Positions 1,384-28,254 of a DNA stretch of 47,070 bases are shown here, piece after piece. This stretch comes from Candidatus Tagabacteria bacterium (GTDB lineage Bacteria > Patescibacteriota > Minisyncoccia > GCA-002779875): assembly GCA_963820595.1 (NCBI GenBank), contig CAWGAO010000007.1, forward strand, positions 1 through 47,070, read 5' to 3'. The translations under genes were made by a program, and so were the position numbers. The notes under the pieces are model-generated. The model did no database searches. It was not told where the DNA came from and worked only from the letters and a program-made list of their open reading frames with translations. Each line of letters starts with the position of its first letter. The first letter of the stretch is position 1.

Positions 1384-2688
1384 ATGACATTTATTATTTT
1401 CATTGCAGTGCTCGCAGTGCTCGTTCTTTCCCATGAATTTGGGCATTTTATTTTTGCCAAAAAATCCGGCATGCGGGTTGATGAATTTGGATTCGGTTTT
1501 CCGCCCCGCCTTTTTGGCATTCAACGTAGAACAGAGCAAAAGCTTGAGAAAATAGCCGAAAAAGAAGAAAATACCGAATTTATCACCGACACTTATGACG
1601 TTCAAAGCGGCAGAGAAATTATCCAAGAAGCAAGCGTTCAAGATATAGAGGAAATTGATAAAATTATCTCCGTGAAAAAGTGGCGTTTTATTTGGCCATG
1701 GGGAAAAGGAAATATTCCGGAAAAGGGAAAAAGCGGAATTGAAGGCGGCAATACGATTTATTCGCTGAATCTGATACCTTTGGGCGGGTTCGTAAAAATT
1801 TACGGCGAGGAAGGAGAAGGAACGGGAGATAAACGAAGTTTTGCCGCTCAATCACTTGGTGTTCGCGCTTTGATTCTTATAGCCGGAGTTTTATTTAATC
1901 TGTTTTTGGCATGGCCGGTTTTAACTGCCGGTTTTTTAATTGGAATGCCGGTTAGTGTTGAAGGCAGTAGTATCTTTGGAGGAAGCATAATTGAAAAAGG
2001 CGTCATGATTCTTCAGGTTCAGGAAAATACTCCTGCGCAAATAGCAGGTTTTAAAACAGGAGATTATCTTTTGCGCTTTACTTCAGATGGCGATGTTCTT
2101 GCGGTTTCCGATGTCAAAAGCGTGCAGGATTTTATCGCAAAACACGCGGGGAAAGAAATCAAAATAGATTATTTAAGAGGTAAAGAAAAATTTACGACTA
2201 ACGCTGCTCCGCTTTTAAAATCCGAGGAAGGTAAAGGCAGTCTTGGCATTGCTATGGATCGTGTCGGCGTTATTCGTCTTCCGTTCTTTAGGGCGATTTG
2301 GGAGGGTTTAAACACAACAGTAAAATTAACGGCCGCTACCGCAAAAGCCCTCGTTGGTTTTTTTGCCGACCTTTTCACTAAAAAAGAGGTGTTAAGTCAG
2401 GTTGCCGGTCCGGTCGGAATAGTTGGCATTGTCGAAACCGCAGCCCGTTCCGGCTTTGTCTTTATTCTTCAACTACTTGCTTTGCTTTCCATTAATCTTG
2501 CTTTGATTAATATTGTGCCTTTTCCGGCCTTAGACGGCGGCCGTTTGCTTTTTTTGGGCATCGAATTGGCCAAAGGGAGGCCGATAAGCCAAAAAACCGC
2601 AAATATTGCGAATACTATAGGATTTGTTATTCTTATTTTATTGATGCTGGCTATTACTTATCAGGACATTTTAAGATTAGCGAAATGA
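1384..2688 (+). CDS. rseP: Site-2 protease RseP (M50 family) with PDZ domain
   Basis: HEFGH zinc motif, LIPLGGFV, NIVPFPALDGG. Confidence 0.93.
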   Translation: MTFIIFIAVLAVLVLSHEFGHFIFAKKSGMRVDEFGFGFPPRLFGIQRRTEQKLEKIAEKEENTEFITDTYDVQSGREIIQEASVQDIEEIDKIISVKKWRFIWPWGKGNIPEKGKSGIEGGNTIYSLNLIPLGGFVKIYGEEGEGTGDKRSFAAQSLGVRALILIAGVLFNLFLAWPVLTAGFLIGMPVSVEGSSIFGGSIIEKGVMILQVQENTPAQIAGFKTGDYLLRFTSDGDVLAVSDVKSVQDFIAKHAGKEIKIDYLRGKEKFTTNAAPLLKSEEGKGSLGIAMDRVGVIRLPFFRAIWEGLNTTVKLTAATAKALVGFFADLFTKKEVLSQVAGPVGIVGIVETAARSGFVFILQLLALLSINLALINIVPFPALDGGRLLFLGIELAKGRPISQKTANIANTIGFVILILLMLAITYQDILRLAK

Positions 2689-6127: not shown

Positions 6128-7821
6128 AAGAAAATTAGGCAAATATATACTCAATCCCGATGAAATTTTTGCCGATTCTCAAAATATTCCGGGATTTGAT
6201 AAATATCAATTCGAAGGACGGCTTGAAAAACCAATCACTAAGTCGACATTTGCAGGCATCGGTATTTGTTTTTTTATTTTAGGAGGCCTGATTTTTGCTA
6301 AAATTTTTCACTTGGAAGTTTTCAAAGGGGAAGCATATGCCGCAAGGAGCGAATATAATTATTTACGTGCCGTAAGTATCCCGGCGGCTAGAGGCATTAT
6401 TTATGACAGAAATGGTAAGGAATTAGCCTGGAATGATTCAGTTATTGAAGAAGGTAATTTAAAATTAGTCAGGGCTTATGCCGATATGCCCGGTTTGGCT
6501 CATGTTTTGGGTTACGTCGGAATCGGCGAGGCCAGCAAAATAATCGGCAAAGACGGTATTGAAAAAAAATATGATGATATTTTAGGCGGAACGGCGGGCG
6601 TAGAACTCGTCGAAACCAACTCCAAAAATGAAGTTGTCTCCGAAAGCATCGCTCGGCCGCCGGAAAACGGTAAAAGCATAAAGATTACAATTGACGCGGA
6701 ACTTCAATCCAGCCTTTATAATATTTTAGAAAATGTTGTAAGAGACCGGGGTTTCGGCGGCGGGGCAGGCGTTATTTTGGATGTTCATTCCGGAGAGGTT
6801 CTGGCTCTTACGAGTTATCCCGAATATAATTCTCAGATTCTTTCCCGCGGCAGACCCGAGGACACTATTAAAAGGATATTTCAATAACAAACAAAAACCT
6901 TTTCTTAACCGCGCCATTTCCGGTTTGTATGCGCCCGGTTCCATTATCAAGCCTATGATTGCTCTTGGTGCGCTTTAATGGAAAAAATTATCAGTCCCGA
7001 AAAACAAATTTTCAGCGCCGGCAGTATTTCTTTGCCCAATCCATTTTTCCCGGATAAATTAAAAATATTTATAGACTGGAAGGCTCACGGCTGGGTTGAT
7101 ATGAGAAGATGCGCTAGCGGTTTCTTCAAACGTTTATTTTTATACGATCGGCGGCGGATACGAAGACGTTAAAGGTTTAGGCATCAGTAAAATTGATAAA
7201 TATGCGAATTTGTTCGGTCTCGGGTCAAAGACAAATATAGATCTTAGATAAAGAAGAAGACGGAATAATCCCGAGCCCGGCCTCAAGGCAATTAATAATC
7301 CGGCAGATCCCACATGGAGAATTGGCGACACTTATAACGCCTGGATCGGCCAGGGAGATTTTCAGATTACGCCTCTTCAGGCAGCCGTTTATGCGGCTGC
7401 GATTGCAAATAGCGGCTGGCTTCTCCAGCCGCATCTTGTGGTCAGCGGATTCAAATAGTGAAGAACTTCCCGACGGAGGCAAAACAATAAACATTTCGCC
7501 GGAATATTTCCAAATCGTCAGAGAAGGAATGAGATTGGGTGTTCTTGAAGGTACGGCGTCAAGGGCTTAAGTGGTTTGGGGATAGACATTGCGTCCAAAA
7601 CCGGCACGGCCGAATTGGATTCTGACGCAAGTAAATTCGTCAATTCTTGGCTTATAGGTTTTCTTCCTTATAAAAATCCCAAAATTGCTTTCAGCATTCT
7701 TCTTGAGAAAGGAAGGCCTACCAATCTTATCGGAGGCGTTTATGTCGGTCGGCAGCTTCTTGAGTGGATGCTTATTCACACCCCCGGTTATTTGACGCCG
7801 TTAGAAGTTCAACCCAAATAA
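6120..7821 (+). CDS. mrdA: Penicillin-binding protein 2 (several frameshifts)
   Basis: ARGIIYDRNG, GEVLALTSYP, PGSIIKP (SxxK) and SKTGTAE motifs spread across frames. Confidence 0.85.
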
Positions 7822-13707: not shown

Positions 13708-15017
13708 ATGTTCAAATCAATTCTAAAAAAAATAATAGTGACAATTCTGACGATTGAGGCCGGATTAGTTTTGAAAAGGTATAAACCAAAAATCGTTGCC
13801 ATTACGGGAAGCGTCGGAAAAACTTCTGCCAAGGATGCCATTGCCGTGGTTCTTGGGCAAAAGTTTTTTGTCAGAAAAGCACGAAAAGCTATAATAGCGA
13901 ATTGGGCGTGCCGCTTGTCGTTTTGGGTTGCGAAACCGGCTGGCTAAACCCGTTTATCTGGCTGACTAATATTTTTAAAGGTTTCAAACTTTTAGCTGCG
14001 CCAAAAAAAATAAAATATCCCCAATGGCTGGTTTTAGAGATGGGAGTGGAACGGCCGGGAGATATGGAAAGACTTGCTTCTTTAATTAAGCCCGATATCG
14101 TCGTTTTAACAGCTCTTGCGGAAATTCCTCCCCATGTTGAATTTTTTGCCGGTCCCGAAGAATTGATTCGCGAAAAGATGAAAATCATCGCCAGGTGCGG
14201 CGTAAACGATTTCGTGGTATTAAACGGCGACGATAAGACTCTCTGCGAAGCGAAGCAAAAAATCCAAACCAAGATAATTGCTTTTGGCTTTAACGACGAT
14301 AATGATTTAAAAGCTTCTAATTATCACATTACTTATCGTCAGGAAGAATCAAGAGAAGCTCCGGAAGGCGTAACATTCAAGATAGATTATAGAGGATCGA
14401 GCGTCCCGGTCAGAATTTTCGGCGCTTTTGGCCGCCATCATGTCTATGCCGCCCTGGCCGCTCTAGGAGTAGGTCTAGCACAAGATTTTAATCTTATTGA
14501 TATCAGCGAGGCTTTAACGCAATATAAATCGCCTCCGGGGCGCCTACGCTTAGTTGAGGGTAATAAAAATACGTATATTCTGGACGATACGTATAATGCT
14601 TCTCCTAAAGCCGTTCACGCGGCTCTGGACACTCTGGCAGACTTGCCTGCCGCAGGCAGGAAAATCGCAGTGCTGGGCGATATGCTGGAATTAGGAAAAT
14701 ATACGGTTCAGGCGCATAAAGTCGTGGGCGACCGAGCCGGTAAAGTTGCTGATATTATTTTTGTCGTTGGTCCGCGGGCAAAATTTATTGCCGAAGAAGC
14801 AAAAGAACAGGGCTTTGATCCGAAAAATATTTTTGAATTTTCGACTTCGGCAGAAGCCGGCAAGCCGCTTCAAGAGATAATAAAAGAAGGAGATCTGATT
14901 CTCGTGAAAGGTTCGCAATCAATGAGAATGGAAAAAATCGTCGAGGAAATAATGGCTCATCCCGAAGATAAAGAAAAACTGCTTGTGCGGCAAGAAAAAG
15001 AGTGGTCCCGACGTTAA
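13708..15017 (+). CDS. murF: UDP-MurNAc-tripeptide D-Ala-D-Ala ligase (frameshift near 13880)
   Basis: AITGSVGKTS, LEMGVERPGD, DDTYNASP, VLGDMLELG, VKGSQ. Confidence 0.92.
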
Positions 15018-15177
15018 TTTATTAACGTCGAGGATCCTCGATTTTTCAGTCCCGCGAATGCGGAACGAAAAATCGGGAAAAAATAAGTAATTTTATAAAT
15101 AAATGGCCCTATCGTCTAGCGGTCTAGGACACCCCGAAGGAGTCGCCTGTGGCGACCCTACGGGGCAGGCATGGTTC

Positions 15178-15368
15178 CTTGCCCCGCACTGAAATTTTGC
15201 TAAACTAAAATCAATTAATTATCACAACCTTGTAATACTATTTAAGTTTGCCGCTATCGTCTAGTTTGGTCTAGGACATCTGGTTCTCATCCAGAAAACA
15301 TCGGTTCAAATCCGATTAGCGGTACATTGAAAAAGAGTAAATATTTTCGCAAAATTTCTAGTGCGGGG
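15178..15368. mobile_element. Inverted-repeat element CCCCGCACTGAAATTTTGC...GCAAAATTTCTAGTGCGGGG carrying a tRNA gene
   Basis: ~19-bp terminal inverted repeat; ends resemble the 26945-27003 element. Confidence 0.75.
15250..15324 (+). tRNA. tRNA-Glu (anticodon CTC), intact, CCA not encoded
   Basis: Acceptor stem GCCGCTA/TAGCGGT; anticodon arm TCTGG-TTCTCAT-CCAGA; T arm ATCGG-TTCAAAT-CCGAT. Confidence 0.92.
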
Positions 15369-15416
15369 TCATCCATGAAACCCGGGTTCGAATCCCGGTG
15401 GCGCTACAAATTTAAA

Positions 15417-25479: not shown

Positions 25480-26851
25480 CTAACGCTCCTTAATTTTCAT
25501 AATTTCTGTTCCTATATTAGTATCTTTAACTATCCAGCCTTTTTTTTCAAGTTCTTCGCGGATGGCGTCGGCTTCTTCCCACTTTTTTTCTTCGCGAAAT
25601 CGTTTCCGTTTCTCGGCTAGAGTCCTTATTTCGGCAGGAATTGAAAAAGATTCGATTTTCCCCAATCCTAAACCCAGAATCCTGTCGAATTTTAAGATAA
25701 GTTTTTGTTTTTCCATTGTATTAATCGCTGAATGTCTGACGGTTTCCCAAATAATTGATAGCGCTTGAGGCATATTTAGGTCGTCATTCGCAGCTTTTAA
25801 AAATTTTCCTTCCAGTTGGCGCGAGAGCAGGGGATTAGGTTTGGTTTTTTTGTTTTCAATTTTAATATTTGGGATGGCTTGTTTCAGATTATTCAGTGCG
25901 TGCTCCGCCGCTTCCAGCGATTTCCAGGTGAAATTCAATTGCGAACGGTAGTGACTTGTGAGAATAAGATAACGGAAGGCGAGGGGATTGAATCCTCGCT
26001 TTTCGATTTCGTTTAAAGTGTAAAAATTTCCGAGCGATTTCGACATCTTTTTGCCGTCAACCAGAAGATGCTCGCCTTCTATCCAAAAGTTTACGAATTT
26101 TTTTCCTGTGGCGGCTTCCGACTGGGCAATTTCATTTTCGTGGTGAGGAAAAATCAAGTCCACCGCGCCCGCGTGAATGTCAAAACTTTTTCCCAAATAC
26201 TTCATGCTTATTGCCGAGCATTCGATGTGCCAGCCCGGCCGGCCAGGCCCGAAAGGGGAGGGCCAAGACGGTTCATTCGGCTTTGTCGATTTCCACAGCG
26301 CGAAATCAGCTGCTTGCCGTTTGCCGTAACTCGTCAGAACTTATGCGCGCTCCGTTTTTAATCTTACGCTGTTCTAATTGCGAAAGTCGGCCATAATTTT
26401 TGAATTTCGAAATATCGAAATAAATTGAGCCGTCATTTCCTTTATAAGCATACCCTTTTTCTAAAAGCACGTTTATTAATCGGATAATTTCTTTAATTGT
26501 TTCTGTCGCTTTTGGATATGCGGTTGCTTTTTCAACGTTGAGATTTTTTAAATCATGAAAGAAAATTTTAATAAGCGGTTCGGTGATTTCTTTAATGGGT
26601 TTATTTTCCCTTTGCATTTTTTTAATGATTTTATCATCGACATCGGTGATGTTCATTATATGTTTTACTTTGTATCCGTTATAAATCAAAACTCGCTTTA
26701 GAATGTCTTCAAAAATATAGGTGCGCAGATTTCCTATGTGAGCTGTGTCGTAAACGGTCGGGCCGCAGGTGTAAATACCCACTTTTTTATCGTGAAGCGG
26801 TTTGAAAATTTCTTTTTTGCGGGTAAGAGTGTTGTAAATTTTTATTTCCAT
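25480..26851 (-). CDS. cysS: Cysteinyl-tRNA synthetase (frameshift near 26310)
   Basis: CGPTVYDTAHIGN, NITDVDDKI, DLIFPHHENE, KMSKSLGN. Confidence 0.94.
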
Positions 26852-26944: not shown

Positions 26945-27003
26945 CCCCGCACCTTTCGGTAATTAAAACCTTAATTATGTTCTTAATTTAGAAAGGTGCG
27001 GGG
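26945..27003. mobile_element. Miniature inverted-repeat element CCCCGCACCTTTC...GAAAGGTGCGGGG flanked by TTGA(C)
   Basis: 13-bp terminal inverted repeat; TTGAC at 26941 and 27004. Confidence 0.7.
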
Positions 27004-27039: not shown

Positions 27040-28254
27040 ATGTTATCCAAGTCCGTAAAAAGGGCCATGTTGTTGGGATTAATCGTAGCGCTTATGGCGG
27101 CTGTTTTTGTAGTGGGCGTCTATTTCGGGTATTCCAACCGGCCAGCAATCGACAAGGTAACCGTTTTATTAAATAAGGAGGCCGAAAAGCCTCCCCAGAT
27201 TGATTTTTCGCCTTTCTGGGCCGTCTGGAATGATATTGAATCGAAATATGTGGGCCGTAATGATTTAGACCGTCAAAAAATGGTTTGGGGCGCGGTAGGC
27301 GGCATGGTGAAGTCTCTAAACGATCCTTACACGGTGTTTTTCCCGCCCAAAGAATCAGAACTTTTCGAGAGCACCGTTAAAGGGCAATTTTCCGGAGTAG
27401 GATTTGAAATCGGCATACGCGACAACATACTAACAGTGATTACGCCGCTGAAAGATACGCCTGCATATCGTGCAGGAATCAAGGCGGGCGATAAAATTTT
27501 AAAAATAAACGGCACCTCGACCGTGGACATGGCCGTTGACGAAGCAATTTCTCTTATAAGAGGGGAGATTGGTACGCAAGTTTCTCTTACTATCGGTCGC
27601 GAAGGGGAAAAAGAACCTCTCGAGTTTAAAATTACTCGCGATACAATCAACATTCCTATCGTAGATACCGAAAAAAAAGCAGGAGGGATTTTTGTGATAA
27701 GTCTTTATAATTTTTCGGAAAATTCTCCCGATGCTTTTCGGAATGCTTTGCGTAAAATGATAGATTCGGGAAGTTCCAAACTGATTCTTGATTTGCGGGG
27801 AAATGCCGGCGGGTATCTTGAAGCGAGCGTAGATATTGCCAGCTGGTTTTTGCCGGTCGGCAAAGTGGTTGCAATCGAAGATTTCGGAAATCATGACCAA
27901 AACGATTACAGGAGCAGGGGCTATGATATATTTAAGAATTTACCTTTTGTCGTTTTGGTAGATAAGGGCAGCGCTTCGGCTACGGAAATACTCGCCGGAG
28001 CTCTGCAGGATTACAAACTCGCTACTCTGGTCGGAGAAAAAACTTTTGGCAAAGGTTCGGTTCAGGAATTATTTTCCGTTACGAACGACACCTCCGTTAA
28101 AGTGACCATTGCGCGTTGGCTCACTCCCAATGGCCGTTCCATTTCCGAAAAAGGCCTGACGCCCGATGTGGAGATAAAAGTGACCGATAAAGATATCAAA
28201 GCGGGCAATGATTCCCAAATGGCAAAAGCGATAGAAATATTAAATAGCAAATAA
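27040..28254 (+). CDS. ctpA: Carboxyl-terminal processing protease (S41 family, PDZ)
   Basis: LDLRGNAGG, SASATEILAGAL, KTFGKGSVQ, TIARWLTPNG. Confidence 0.92.
   Translation: MLSKSVKRAMLLGLIVALMAAVFVVGVYFGYSNRPAIDKVTVLLNKEAEKPPQIDFSPFWAVWNDIESKYVGRNDLDRQKMVWGAVGGMVKSLNDPYTVFFPPKESELFESTVKGQFSGVGFEIGIRDNILTVITPLKDTPAYRAGIKAGDKILKINGTSTVDMAVDEAISLIRGEIGTQVSLTIGREGEKEPLEFKITRDTINIPIVDTEKKAGGIFVISLYNFSENSPDAFRNALRKMIDSGSSKLILDLRGNAGGYLEASVDIASWFLPVGKVVAIEDFGNHDQNDYRSRGYDIFKNLPFVVLVDKGSASATEILAGALQDYKLATLVGEKTFGKGSVQELFSVTNDTSVKVTIARWLTPNGRSISEKGLTPDVEIKVTDKDIKAGNDSQMAKAIEILNSK

Follow-up and report, generated by a model that had tools for sequence, protein, structure and literature searches.

How does a complete transfer RNA (tRNA) gene come to lie within another tRNA gene of the same specificity? 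The question is raised by a locus in a 47,070-nucleotide (nt) stretch of DNA from a Candidatus Tagabacteria genome (contig CAWGAO010000007.1 of assembly GCA_963820595.1; this whole stretch is called the window here), in which a resident tRNA-Glu(CTC) gene, spanning 15105-15406, is interrupted: an insert of 191 nt (15178-15368), lying between nt 34 and 35 of the anticodon, holds a second, intact tRNA-Glu(CTC) gene. The answer that we consider probable is that the insert is a non-autonomous DNA cassette, akin to MITEs (miniature transposable elements with inverted repeats), which enters the loops of stable-RNA genes and is tolerated through the replacement copy it brings, while the outer gene is a decaying relic. 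The source genome (G000) amounts to 570 kb in 10 contigs, has a G+C content of 42% and an estimated completeness of 56%, and carries a tmRNA gene, which identifies it as bacterial.

The first-pass annotation of the window, made from its letters, had placed an inverted-repeat insert between the C and the TC of the anticodon, and it proved to be exactly there. The 191 nt consist of the tetranucleotide CTTG and a 187-nt element with inverted ends of 19 and 20 nt (15182-15200 and 15349-15368; cores CCCCGCAC and GTGCGGGG), which match each other with one indel and pair perfectly over the 9 terminal bp. The inner gene, likewise described beforehand as intact and divergent, scored 62.2 bits against the Rfam model RF00005 (gathering score, 29; model positions 1-71) and 115.1 in ARAGORN, and shares 58 of 76 aligned positions with the outer gene. 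When both inserts of the outer gene (the cassette and a 38-nt hairpin) were removed by coordinate, ARAGORN recognized the joined sequence as tRNA-Glu(CTC) with a score of 112.5; the concern that the rejoined outer sequence might make a poor tRNA was thus not borne out. Its sole stem defect is C4:C69 in the acceptor stem, and its 3' half alone gave a partial RF00005 match (15365-15406, 18.8 bits). Because the ARAGORN score ignores the anticodon (a cut moved by one base returns the same score and another anticodon, so that the exact cut is often ambiguous), the assignment to 34|35 is based on the tRNA-Glu body and on conserved synteny. The end motif CCCCGCAC occurs five times in the window, versus 0.61 copies expected. 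The features of the locus and the related element elsewhere in the window are as follows.

13902-15017, plus strand: Mur ligase gene (MurF-like; Pfam Mur_ligase_C and Mur_ligase_M), the upstream neighbour.

15105-15131, plus strand: 5' part of the outer tRNA-Glu, with the 5' strand of the acceptor stem, the D arm and nt 26; short D-loop type.

15132-15169, plus strand: cargo-less mini element of 38 nt, a CCCCG...CGGGG hairpin with the 4-nt tail CAGG, at position 26|27 of the outer tRNA.

15170-15177, plus strand: 5' strand of the anticodon stem and loop nt 32-34 of the outer tRNA-Glu; the 8-nt spacer between mini element and cassette.

15178-15181, plus strand: 4-nt tail of the cassette, CTTG, the reverse complement of the CAAG tail that lies on the opposite side elsewhere.

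15182-15200, plus strand: left inverted repeat of the cassette, with the core CCCCGCAC and an A/T-rich extension.

15250-15324, plus strand: intact inner tRNA-Glu(CTC), the cargo; long D-loop type (ARAGORN, Rfam RF00005).

15349-15368, plus strand: right inverted repeat of the cassette, with the core GTGCGGGG, directly abutting nt 35 of the outer tRNA.

15369-15406, plus strand: 3' part of the outer tRNA-Glu, with nt 35-36, the rest of the anticodon arm, variable loop, T arm, 3' strand of the acceptor stem and discriminator.

26945-27003, no strand assigned: 59-nt cargo-less member of the family, intergenic, with TTGA on both sides.

Just upstream of the outer tRNA (15020-15080) there are a terminator-like palindrome (15027-15042) with a T run and a second, imperfect palindrome; similar short palindromes lie near other tRNA loci of the source genome (C8, about 103320-103365; C6, about 62450-62500).

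Relatives of the source genome show which of the two genes belongs to the site. Thirty Mur ligase loci were fetched from them with the Mur ligase protein and scanned by ARAGORN, and in 22 of these the homologous Mur ligase gene has one tRNA-Glu(CTC), uninterrupted, as its neighbour, the plain arrangement for which the first-pass annotation had suggested looking. The only genome of the same family that was compared, which belongs to the sister genus (G001), is identical at 36 of 39 positions when the 39 nt beyond its tRNA-Glu are set against those beyond the outer 3' half. Since the outer halves lie at the conserved site and share the flank of G001, the outer gene is the resident one; the same flank match, together with the good rejoined score, speaks against the proposal that the two halves derive from two separate genes. 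The outer tRNA-Glu is of the short D-loop type found in most relatives, has an anticodon stem as in other relatives, and is 88% identical to that at locus L008. The inner tRNA-Glu shares its acceptor strands exactly with the tRNA-Glu in a genome of another family (G011, locus L019), with 82% identity overall, and is the only uninterrupted tRNA-Glu(CTC) that ARAGORN reports in the assembly, a tRNA-Glu(TTC) lying elsewhere. Two further ideas were rejected: a resemblance of the 5' spacer of the insert to the flank downstream of the outer gene reached a local alignment score of only 11-12 and is put down to chance, and a chimeric outer gene, with donor and recipient halves recombined within the tRNA, is unsupported, the checked acceptor stems of outer genes being fully paired in 11 of 12 cases (our own reading).

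Other elements with these ends that contain tRNAs, which the first-pass annotation had proposed to look for, do exist: there are two more nests in the source genome and many in its class. At C6:75676-75905, found by ARAGORN with introns allowed, an intact tRNA-Asp(GTC) in a 111-nt inverted-repeat element splits an outer tRNA-Asp, again at 34|35, and the right end and the 4-nt left spacer are the same as in the window cassette. Relative to the plain tRNA-Asp of G001, which shares its acceptor and D arm with the outer and not with the inner gene, the outer tRNA-Asp has gained a hairpin in its T arm, and its anticodon stem differs by an indel of 1 nt. The third locus, found by reading around the end motif, is a triple nest at about C8:103290-103700, in which a tRNA-Lys(CTT) lies in a tRNA-like gene, this in an element bounded by the 8-mer, and this in turn in a badly damaged tRNA-Lys-like gene; the middle tRNA-like gene has a tetraloop hairpin for an anticodon arm. 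G001 has plain tRNA-Glu, tRNA-Asp and Arg-Lys loci at all three sites, its Arg(CCG)-Lys(CTT) pair being without the 183-nt nested block.

Counting its complement, the 8-mer CCCCGCAC is present in 28 copies in the source genome, versus 5.2 +/- 2.2 in 20 second-order Markov simulations, and some of the copies bound elements that carry no tRNA. Three such cargo-less copies of 59-60 nt have the same ends (window 26945-27003, C7:132392-132450 and C6:46695-46754), and each lies between direct repeats of 4 bp (TTGA or TCAA). The two copies on C7, namely, that of the window, which lies between open reading frames (ORFs) ending at 26851 and starting at 27040, and that at 132392-132450, have identical flanks and opposite internal orientations. 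Larger elements of about 130-166 nt, with inverted ends and a GC-rich, hairpin-rich cargo other than tRNA, were seen at C8:66994-67146, about C8:68240-68371 and C5:1228-1393; when ten loci whose elements had no cargo or an odd one were scanned against Rfam by E value, the GC-rich cargos matched no family. The two on C8 bracket ORFs that look cupin-like and superoxide-dismutase-like from their translations, and the whole may be a composite unit. A separate observation concerns C7:61200-61560 (minus strand; L129). Here an intact tRNA-Lys(TTT) comes first, next is a copy with a TCCGCC-NNNN-GGCGGA hairpin in place of its D arm (38 bits in Rfam), and a 3' fragment is third; hairpins of this type recur in the D loops of outer genes elsewhere and beside the split 5S gene described below.

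The family extends across the class. A two-end pattern (CCGCAC, a gap of 90-260 nt, GTGCGGGGT) was present in 89 of the 401 class genomes sampled, with up to 21 matches per genome, versus mostly 0-1 per genome for the reversed pattern used as a control. We read by eye 27 inverted-repeat-bounded cassettes with an intact tRNA or 5S rRNA gene, the nesting calls being our own reading: 3 from the source genome, 5 from loci L047, L048, L050, L052 and L056, 16 from L062-L077, 1 each from L091 and L181, and the 5S rRNA cassette of L036. All but one of them (26 of 27) are nested in a split gene or gene fragment of the same kind and always in the same orientation as it, the sole exception being L065, where no outer gene is visible. 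The kinds found nested are Glu, Asp, Lys, Ser, Leu, Pro (three anticodons), Arg (three), Ala, Val, Ile, Met and 5S, and triple nests occur at L068 (Ala), at L071 (Ser) and in the source genome (Lys). The distribution is patchy even within a genus: in genus g56, one genome (G056) has 18 pattern matches, and five congeners have 0-1. A scan of the whole collection, the listed matches of which are mostly from high-GC genomes (Streptomyces and others) and have no bearing on spread beyond the class, gave one inverted-repeat pair with a tRNA among the 80 examined, the nested Ala of L181 in a metagenome-assembled genome of Candidatus Jorgensenbacteria. A comparison of states before and after insertion between G248 and its congener G011 was limited to the tRNA parts, the flanks being too diverged to align.

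Two of the class loci, both brought to light by the Rfam scan of ten loci mentioned above, involve other stable RNAs. In L036 (G162:C13), an intact 5S rRNA gene (locus 1536-1648, minus strand) is enclosed, together with the same inverted ends, in a split outer 5S gene that lies downstream of the 23S gene, so the rule of like into like extends beyond tRNAs; further mini elements were seen in the same split locus. In L059 (G034:C1), the RNase P RNA (locus 1169-1739; RF00010, 159 bits, 571 nt) has as its P15-17 arm a 135-nt hairpin whose base is a stem of CCCCGCAC and GTGCGGGG with an A/T-rich extension; an element seems to sit in an essential ribozyme gene. Cassettes carrying Lys were found at the same D-loop position in two families (the source genome and L056), and the gene of the sister genus is plain, which suggests a preference for the site and not shared ancestry.

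We also compared the anatomy of the elements and their points of entry. An insertion in a tRNA gene consists of the element with its inverted ends, CCCCGCAC...GTGCGGGG, and of 4 nt on one side only, usually of the form YARR; on the right side we found CAAG, TAAA and TGAA, and on the left, as reverse complements, CTTG (the window), TTTA and CACG. Since the tail may be on either side, the element must occur in both orientations relative to its cargo, the cargo itself always being co-oriented with the outer gene; and since 3' and 5' tails are equivalent in duplex DNA only, this symmetry points to behaviour at the DNA level and not at that of RNA. The points of entry are the D loop, 26|27, 30|31 to 36|37 and, once, the T arm, that is, mostly the loops of the cloverleaf. 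Direct repeats of 4 bp (TTGA, TCAA, TTAT) flank 4 of about 11 cargo-less copies, and none was seen at a tRNA insertion. Cargo-less copies measure 59-166 nt (59-60 nt in the source genome, and about 105-166 nt both there and elsewhere).

The 38-nt hairpin that the first-pass annotation had reported between the D arm and the anticodon arm is indeed present, at 26|27, but it is not the separate oddity it was taken for: it is a diverged cargo-less member of the family, 8 nt from the cassette, and a nearly identical mini element occupies the same position in a tRNA-Pro of another family (L074). In outer tRNAs that contain both a mini element and a cassette, the two face each other with their tails, across a spacer of 8 nt in the window, L064, L066, L069 and L062 (mirrored there) and of 9 nt in L073, L074 and L181. 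The arrangement is reminiscent of a recombinase core site with its arms and spacer, or of insertion directed by the end of an element already present. Mini elements were seen in outer genes only, never in the intact inner ones.

The state of the outer genes is mixed. With a script that deletes the element together with 0-8 nt of flank and at most two small hairpins and then runs ARAGORN, a cloverleaf spanning the junction with a score of at least 110 was recovered in 13 of 25 loci, L056 being doubtful among them; four recoveries with lower scores (L048, L062, L073 and L077; 100.9-108) are spurious or weak, and the remaining eight loci gave no outer tRNA, though in most of them the outer halves are visible by eye. 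The defects include T54C (L064), T55C (L066), anticodon loops that are wrong for the tRNA body or too large (L068 and L070) and truncated or missing 3' halves (L048 and L050); together with the C:C pair of the window and the indel and T-arm hairpin of the outer tRNA-Asp, they are of a kind almost never shown by live tRNAs. In one genome of 97% completeness (G185), 45 intact tRNA genes were found, among them the anticodons of its split outer genes. Overall, the outer genes look dispensable and decaying. The only gap noticed in G185 is Thr(GGT), present solely as an interrupted gene. There, at L093 (G185:C4, about 7100-7330, minus strand), the tRNA-Thr(GGT) is interrupted directly behind the anticodon loop by some 225 nt that lack CCCCGCAC ends; this insert gave no group I match in Rfam at E values up to 0.1 and may be an unrecognised self-splicing intron.

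On these grounds, we favour the explanation that the first-pass annotation had put forward for the single locus, a miniature element replacing the tRNA it destroys, and it generalises to a family found across the class. Elements of this kind would insert, as DNA, at positions corresponding to single-stranded loops of stable-RNA genes (the D loop, 26|27, the anticodon stem and loop), and some copies would carry a complete tRNA or 5S rRNA gene as cargo. A hit on an essential single-copy tRNA gene would be tolerable only if the cargo supplied the same tRNA, and since only such self-compensating insertions would survive, nearly all the copies that remain should be of like into like. In the window, the resident tRNA-Glu(CTC) would have been split at 34|35 and its function taken over by the co-oriented cargo tRNA-Glu(CTC), presumably transcribed from the resident promoter and released by RNase P and 3' processing; the insert may thereby have become hard to lose, as had been supposed. 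The outer halves would be a young pseudogene, hit in addition 8 nt upstream by a mini element without cargo. Elements of this kind have probably taken the place of a 5S rRNA gene and of many tRNA genes in related bacteria with tiny genomes.

Several observations weigh against this explanation. Many outer genes are near-perfect once the inserts are removed (L064, L069 and L074, the tRNA-Leu of L069 being perfect after three removals), and nearly all the acceptor stems checked are fully paired, as given above; intact outer genes of this sort require either very recent insertions or maintenance by selection. An RtcB ligase gene lies near the Lys nest of the source genome. Of the transposase families tested, Y1_Tnp and DDE_Tnp_1, none was found with matching ends, and neither tracks the elements: Y1_Tnp-like ORFs occur in 11 of 21 element-bearing versus 9 of 20 element-free genomes, and DDE_Tnp_1 occurs in 3 of 41. 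Target-site duplications, absent at tRNA insertions, are inconsistent elsewhere, and the fixed spacing of 8-9 nt between mini element and cassette does not follow from it. Finally, only one of the 27 cassettes looks neutral and intergenic, so a preference for stable-RNA genes has to be assumed; random insertion and selection alone should leave neutral intergenic tRNA cassettes that outnumber the nests. Candidate routes to such targeting are folded single strands at heavily transcribed genes and homology with the cargo. The Y1-like ORF of the source genome (C7:166374-166649) has no end motif nearby. As a side observation, the Y1_Tnp-like ORFs, present in 20 of the 41 genomes and often in several copies, encode about 215-285 amino acids; the usual IS200 transposases are shorter.

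The rival that survives best, possible though unlikely in our judgement, treats the inserts as introns, in line with the suggestion of the first-pass annotation that the paired ends form an intron-like stem and that one transcript yields two tRNAs. A protein endonuclease that recognises the conserved CCCCGCAC/GUGCGGGG helix would remove the cassette and the mini element, and ligation by RtcB or another enzyme would give two functional tRNA-Glu molecules, which would be a parallel, equally tentative, to archaeal multi-intron tRNAs and rRNA processing stems. The high scores restored by removal of the inserts, in the window and at the 13 loci mentioned, are in its favour, as are the occurrence of the same helix around the inner 5S of a split 5S gene and in an arm of RNase P RNA, and the predicted fold of the whole 303-nt window locus, a set of nested cloverleaves on a 20-bp closing stem (-106.2 kcal/mol, z of -5.2, equalled by 0 of 100 shuffles). 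The insert positions in the D loop, at 26|27 and from 30|31 to 36|37 resemble those of archaeal non-canonical introns. In addition, the source genome has an RtcB gene (C8:100824-102110, minus strand, 565 bits), located between tRNA-Arg genes and 1.2 kb upstream of the Lys nest.

Several results weaken this reading. Examined by hand in both registers, neither junction of the window allows the central helix of a bulge-helix-bulge (BHB) motif (two 3-nt bulges and a 4-bp helix), and EndA (PF01974) gave no match in the source genome, which is 56% complete. When 20 element-bearing and 20 element-free genomes, grouped by matches to the two-end pattern or by a verified nest, were compared, RtcB was present in 7 and 11 of them, respectively, with no positive association. 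It is absent from 13 of the 20 element-bearing genomes, several of them 97-100% complete; among the 13 are G185, G248, G104, G103, G095 and G277, all with nested tRNAs, and G312, which was grouped by its pattern matches. (In G332:C55:17179-19971, the RtcB match is split over a 988-amino-acid open frame and may contain an intein.) The tail changes sides between 3' and 5', which an RNA enzyme would not treat alike; several outer genes (L068, L070, L048 and the outer Asp) would yield a correct tRNA by no cut; and patchiness within a genus is unlike a host processing signal. Nor does splicing give any reason why 26 of the 27 nests should be of like into like, a rule to be expected where only insertions that bring their own replacement survive in single-copy essential genes.

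That rule could also come from homing, with the cargo RNA or gene guiding insertion to the homologous resident gene. We consider this unlikely, though it would explain the like-into-like nesting, the shared D-loop position in distant families and the mini elements 8-9 bp from a cassette end. If it were true, the tRNA and 5S genes of these bacteria would be subject to continuous, horizontally driven replacement by selfish modules that carry a spare.

Lower still we rate site-specific recombination, in which the inverted arms and the 8-9-bp spacer would be a lox-like core and circular tRNA modules would be exchanged, in the manner of an integron, by a tyrosine or serine recombinase. The arms GGGG+YARR and YYTR+CCCC do flank a spacer of 8 nt at five loci and of 9 nt at three, and target duplications are lacking at tRNA insertions, but a crossover within the core requires a second copy of the spacer at the far end of the cassette, where none is present, most cassettes have no accompanying mini element, and no recombinase gene lies beside the window locus, the neighbouring ORFs of which are a Mur ligase and an alpha/beta hydrolase. 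An artefact or chance, that is, a mis-assembly of two tRNA-Glu loci or unrelated fragments flanking a real gene, might be suspected from the fragmented, 56% complete assembly and the one mismatch in the outer acceptor stem, but is highly improbable, given that the same architecture, ends and tails are found at three loci of the source genome and in over 20 genomes from other families, and that the outer halves lie exactly at the conserved position of the resident gene.

Among known systems, the nearest to the replacement cassette are MITEs and mobile insertion cassettes, followed by integrative elements, archaeal multi-intron tRNAs and bacterial group I tRNA introns. MITEs are non-autonomous elements with inverted ends like those of insertion sequences, and some mobile insertion cassettes have passenger genes. 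The present family resembles them in its terminal inverted repeats, small size, lack of an internal transposase, many copies in both orientations, patchy distribution, and coexistence of cargo-less and cargo-bearing forms. In contrast to MITEs and to mobile insertion cassettes (a concept described in PMC6199540 and PMC5444012), its cargo, a stable-RNA gene, matches its target in kind, which makes the insertion self-compensating; it targets tRNA and 5S loops; it has a one-sided 4-nt tail and no regular target duplication; and no cognate autonomous element was found for it among the two transposase families tested.

Integrative elements (phages and integrative and conjugative elements) also target tRNA genes, often in the anticodon or T loop, and bring tRNA sequence that keeps the host viable, which is their likeness to the window insert. 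They restore only the displaced 3' part, however, leave direct attachment (att) repeats, are kilobases long and encode an integrase, whereas the 191 nt of the window insert contain, between inverted repeats, a tRNA gene that is both complete and divergent. Neither a direct repeat of the tRNA 3' part nor an adjacent integrase was found at the window locus, the only direct repeat being that between the inner and outer 3' halves (73%).

The archaeal non-canonical and multiple introns and the split or permuted tRNAs, which depend on BHB, EndA and RtcB (reviewed in PMC4090602 and PMC3978253), are similar in having several inserts per tRNA at D-loop, anticodon-stem and anticodon-loop sites, each closed by a conserved helix, and in that the same helix also bounds an rRNA. 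They differ in that the window host is bacterial, with no BHB, no EndA match in the 56% complete genome and no correlation with RtcB, that the window insert holds a full tRNA of the same anticodon, and that outer genes of the family show decay.

Bacterial group I introns likewise enter the anticodon loop of tRNA genes, and 34|35 is the insertion site of that in the cyanobacterial tRNA-Leu(UAA). The window insert, at 191 nt of which 75 are tRNA, is too small for a ribozyme core, and Intron_gpI gave no match in the window at the Rfam gathering threshold. A group I insertion is made phenotypically neutral (PMC3984707), and here neutrality would come from a spare gene and not from self-splicing. 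An abstract-level search of the literature returned no description of nested or self-replacing bacterial tRNA cassettes or of inverted-repeat cassettes that bring a tRNA or 5S gene into a homologous gene.

Small mobile elements have two known ways of making an insertion in an essential gene harmless, self-splicing (group I and II introns and inteins) and restoration of the cut end (integrative elements); if the replacement reading is true, carrying a complete spare would be a third. Were the intron-like alternative true instead, this would be the first case in bacteria of a tRNA splicing system that depends on protein. The defined DNA end, CCCCGCAC...GTGCGGGG with the tail YARR, is in itself a handle for finding a new nuclease or recombinase that targets the loops of stable-RNA genes. 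Replacement by cassettes would also account for the pseudo-tRNA debris that confuses annotation, tRNA finders reporting only the inner gene, and would explain the turnover and horizontal replacement of tRNA genes in Patescibacteria-like genomes with single-copy tRNA sets.

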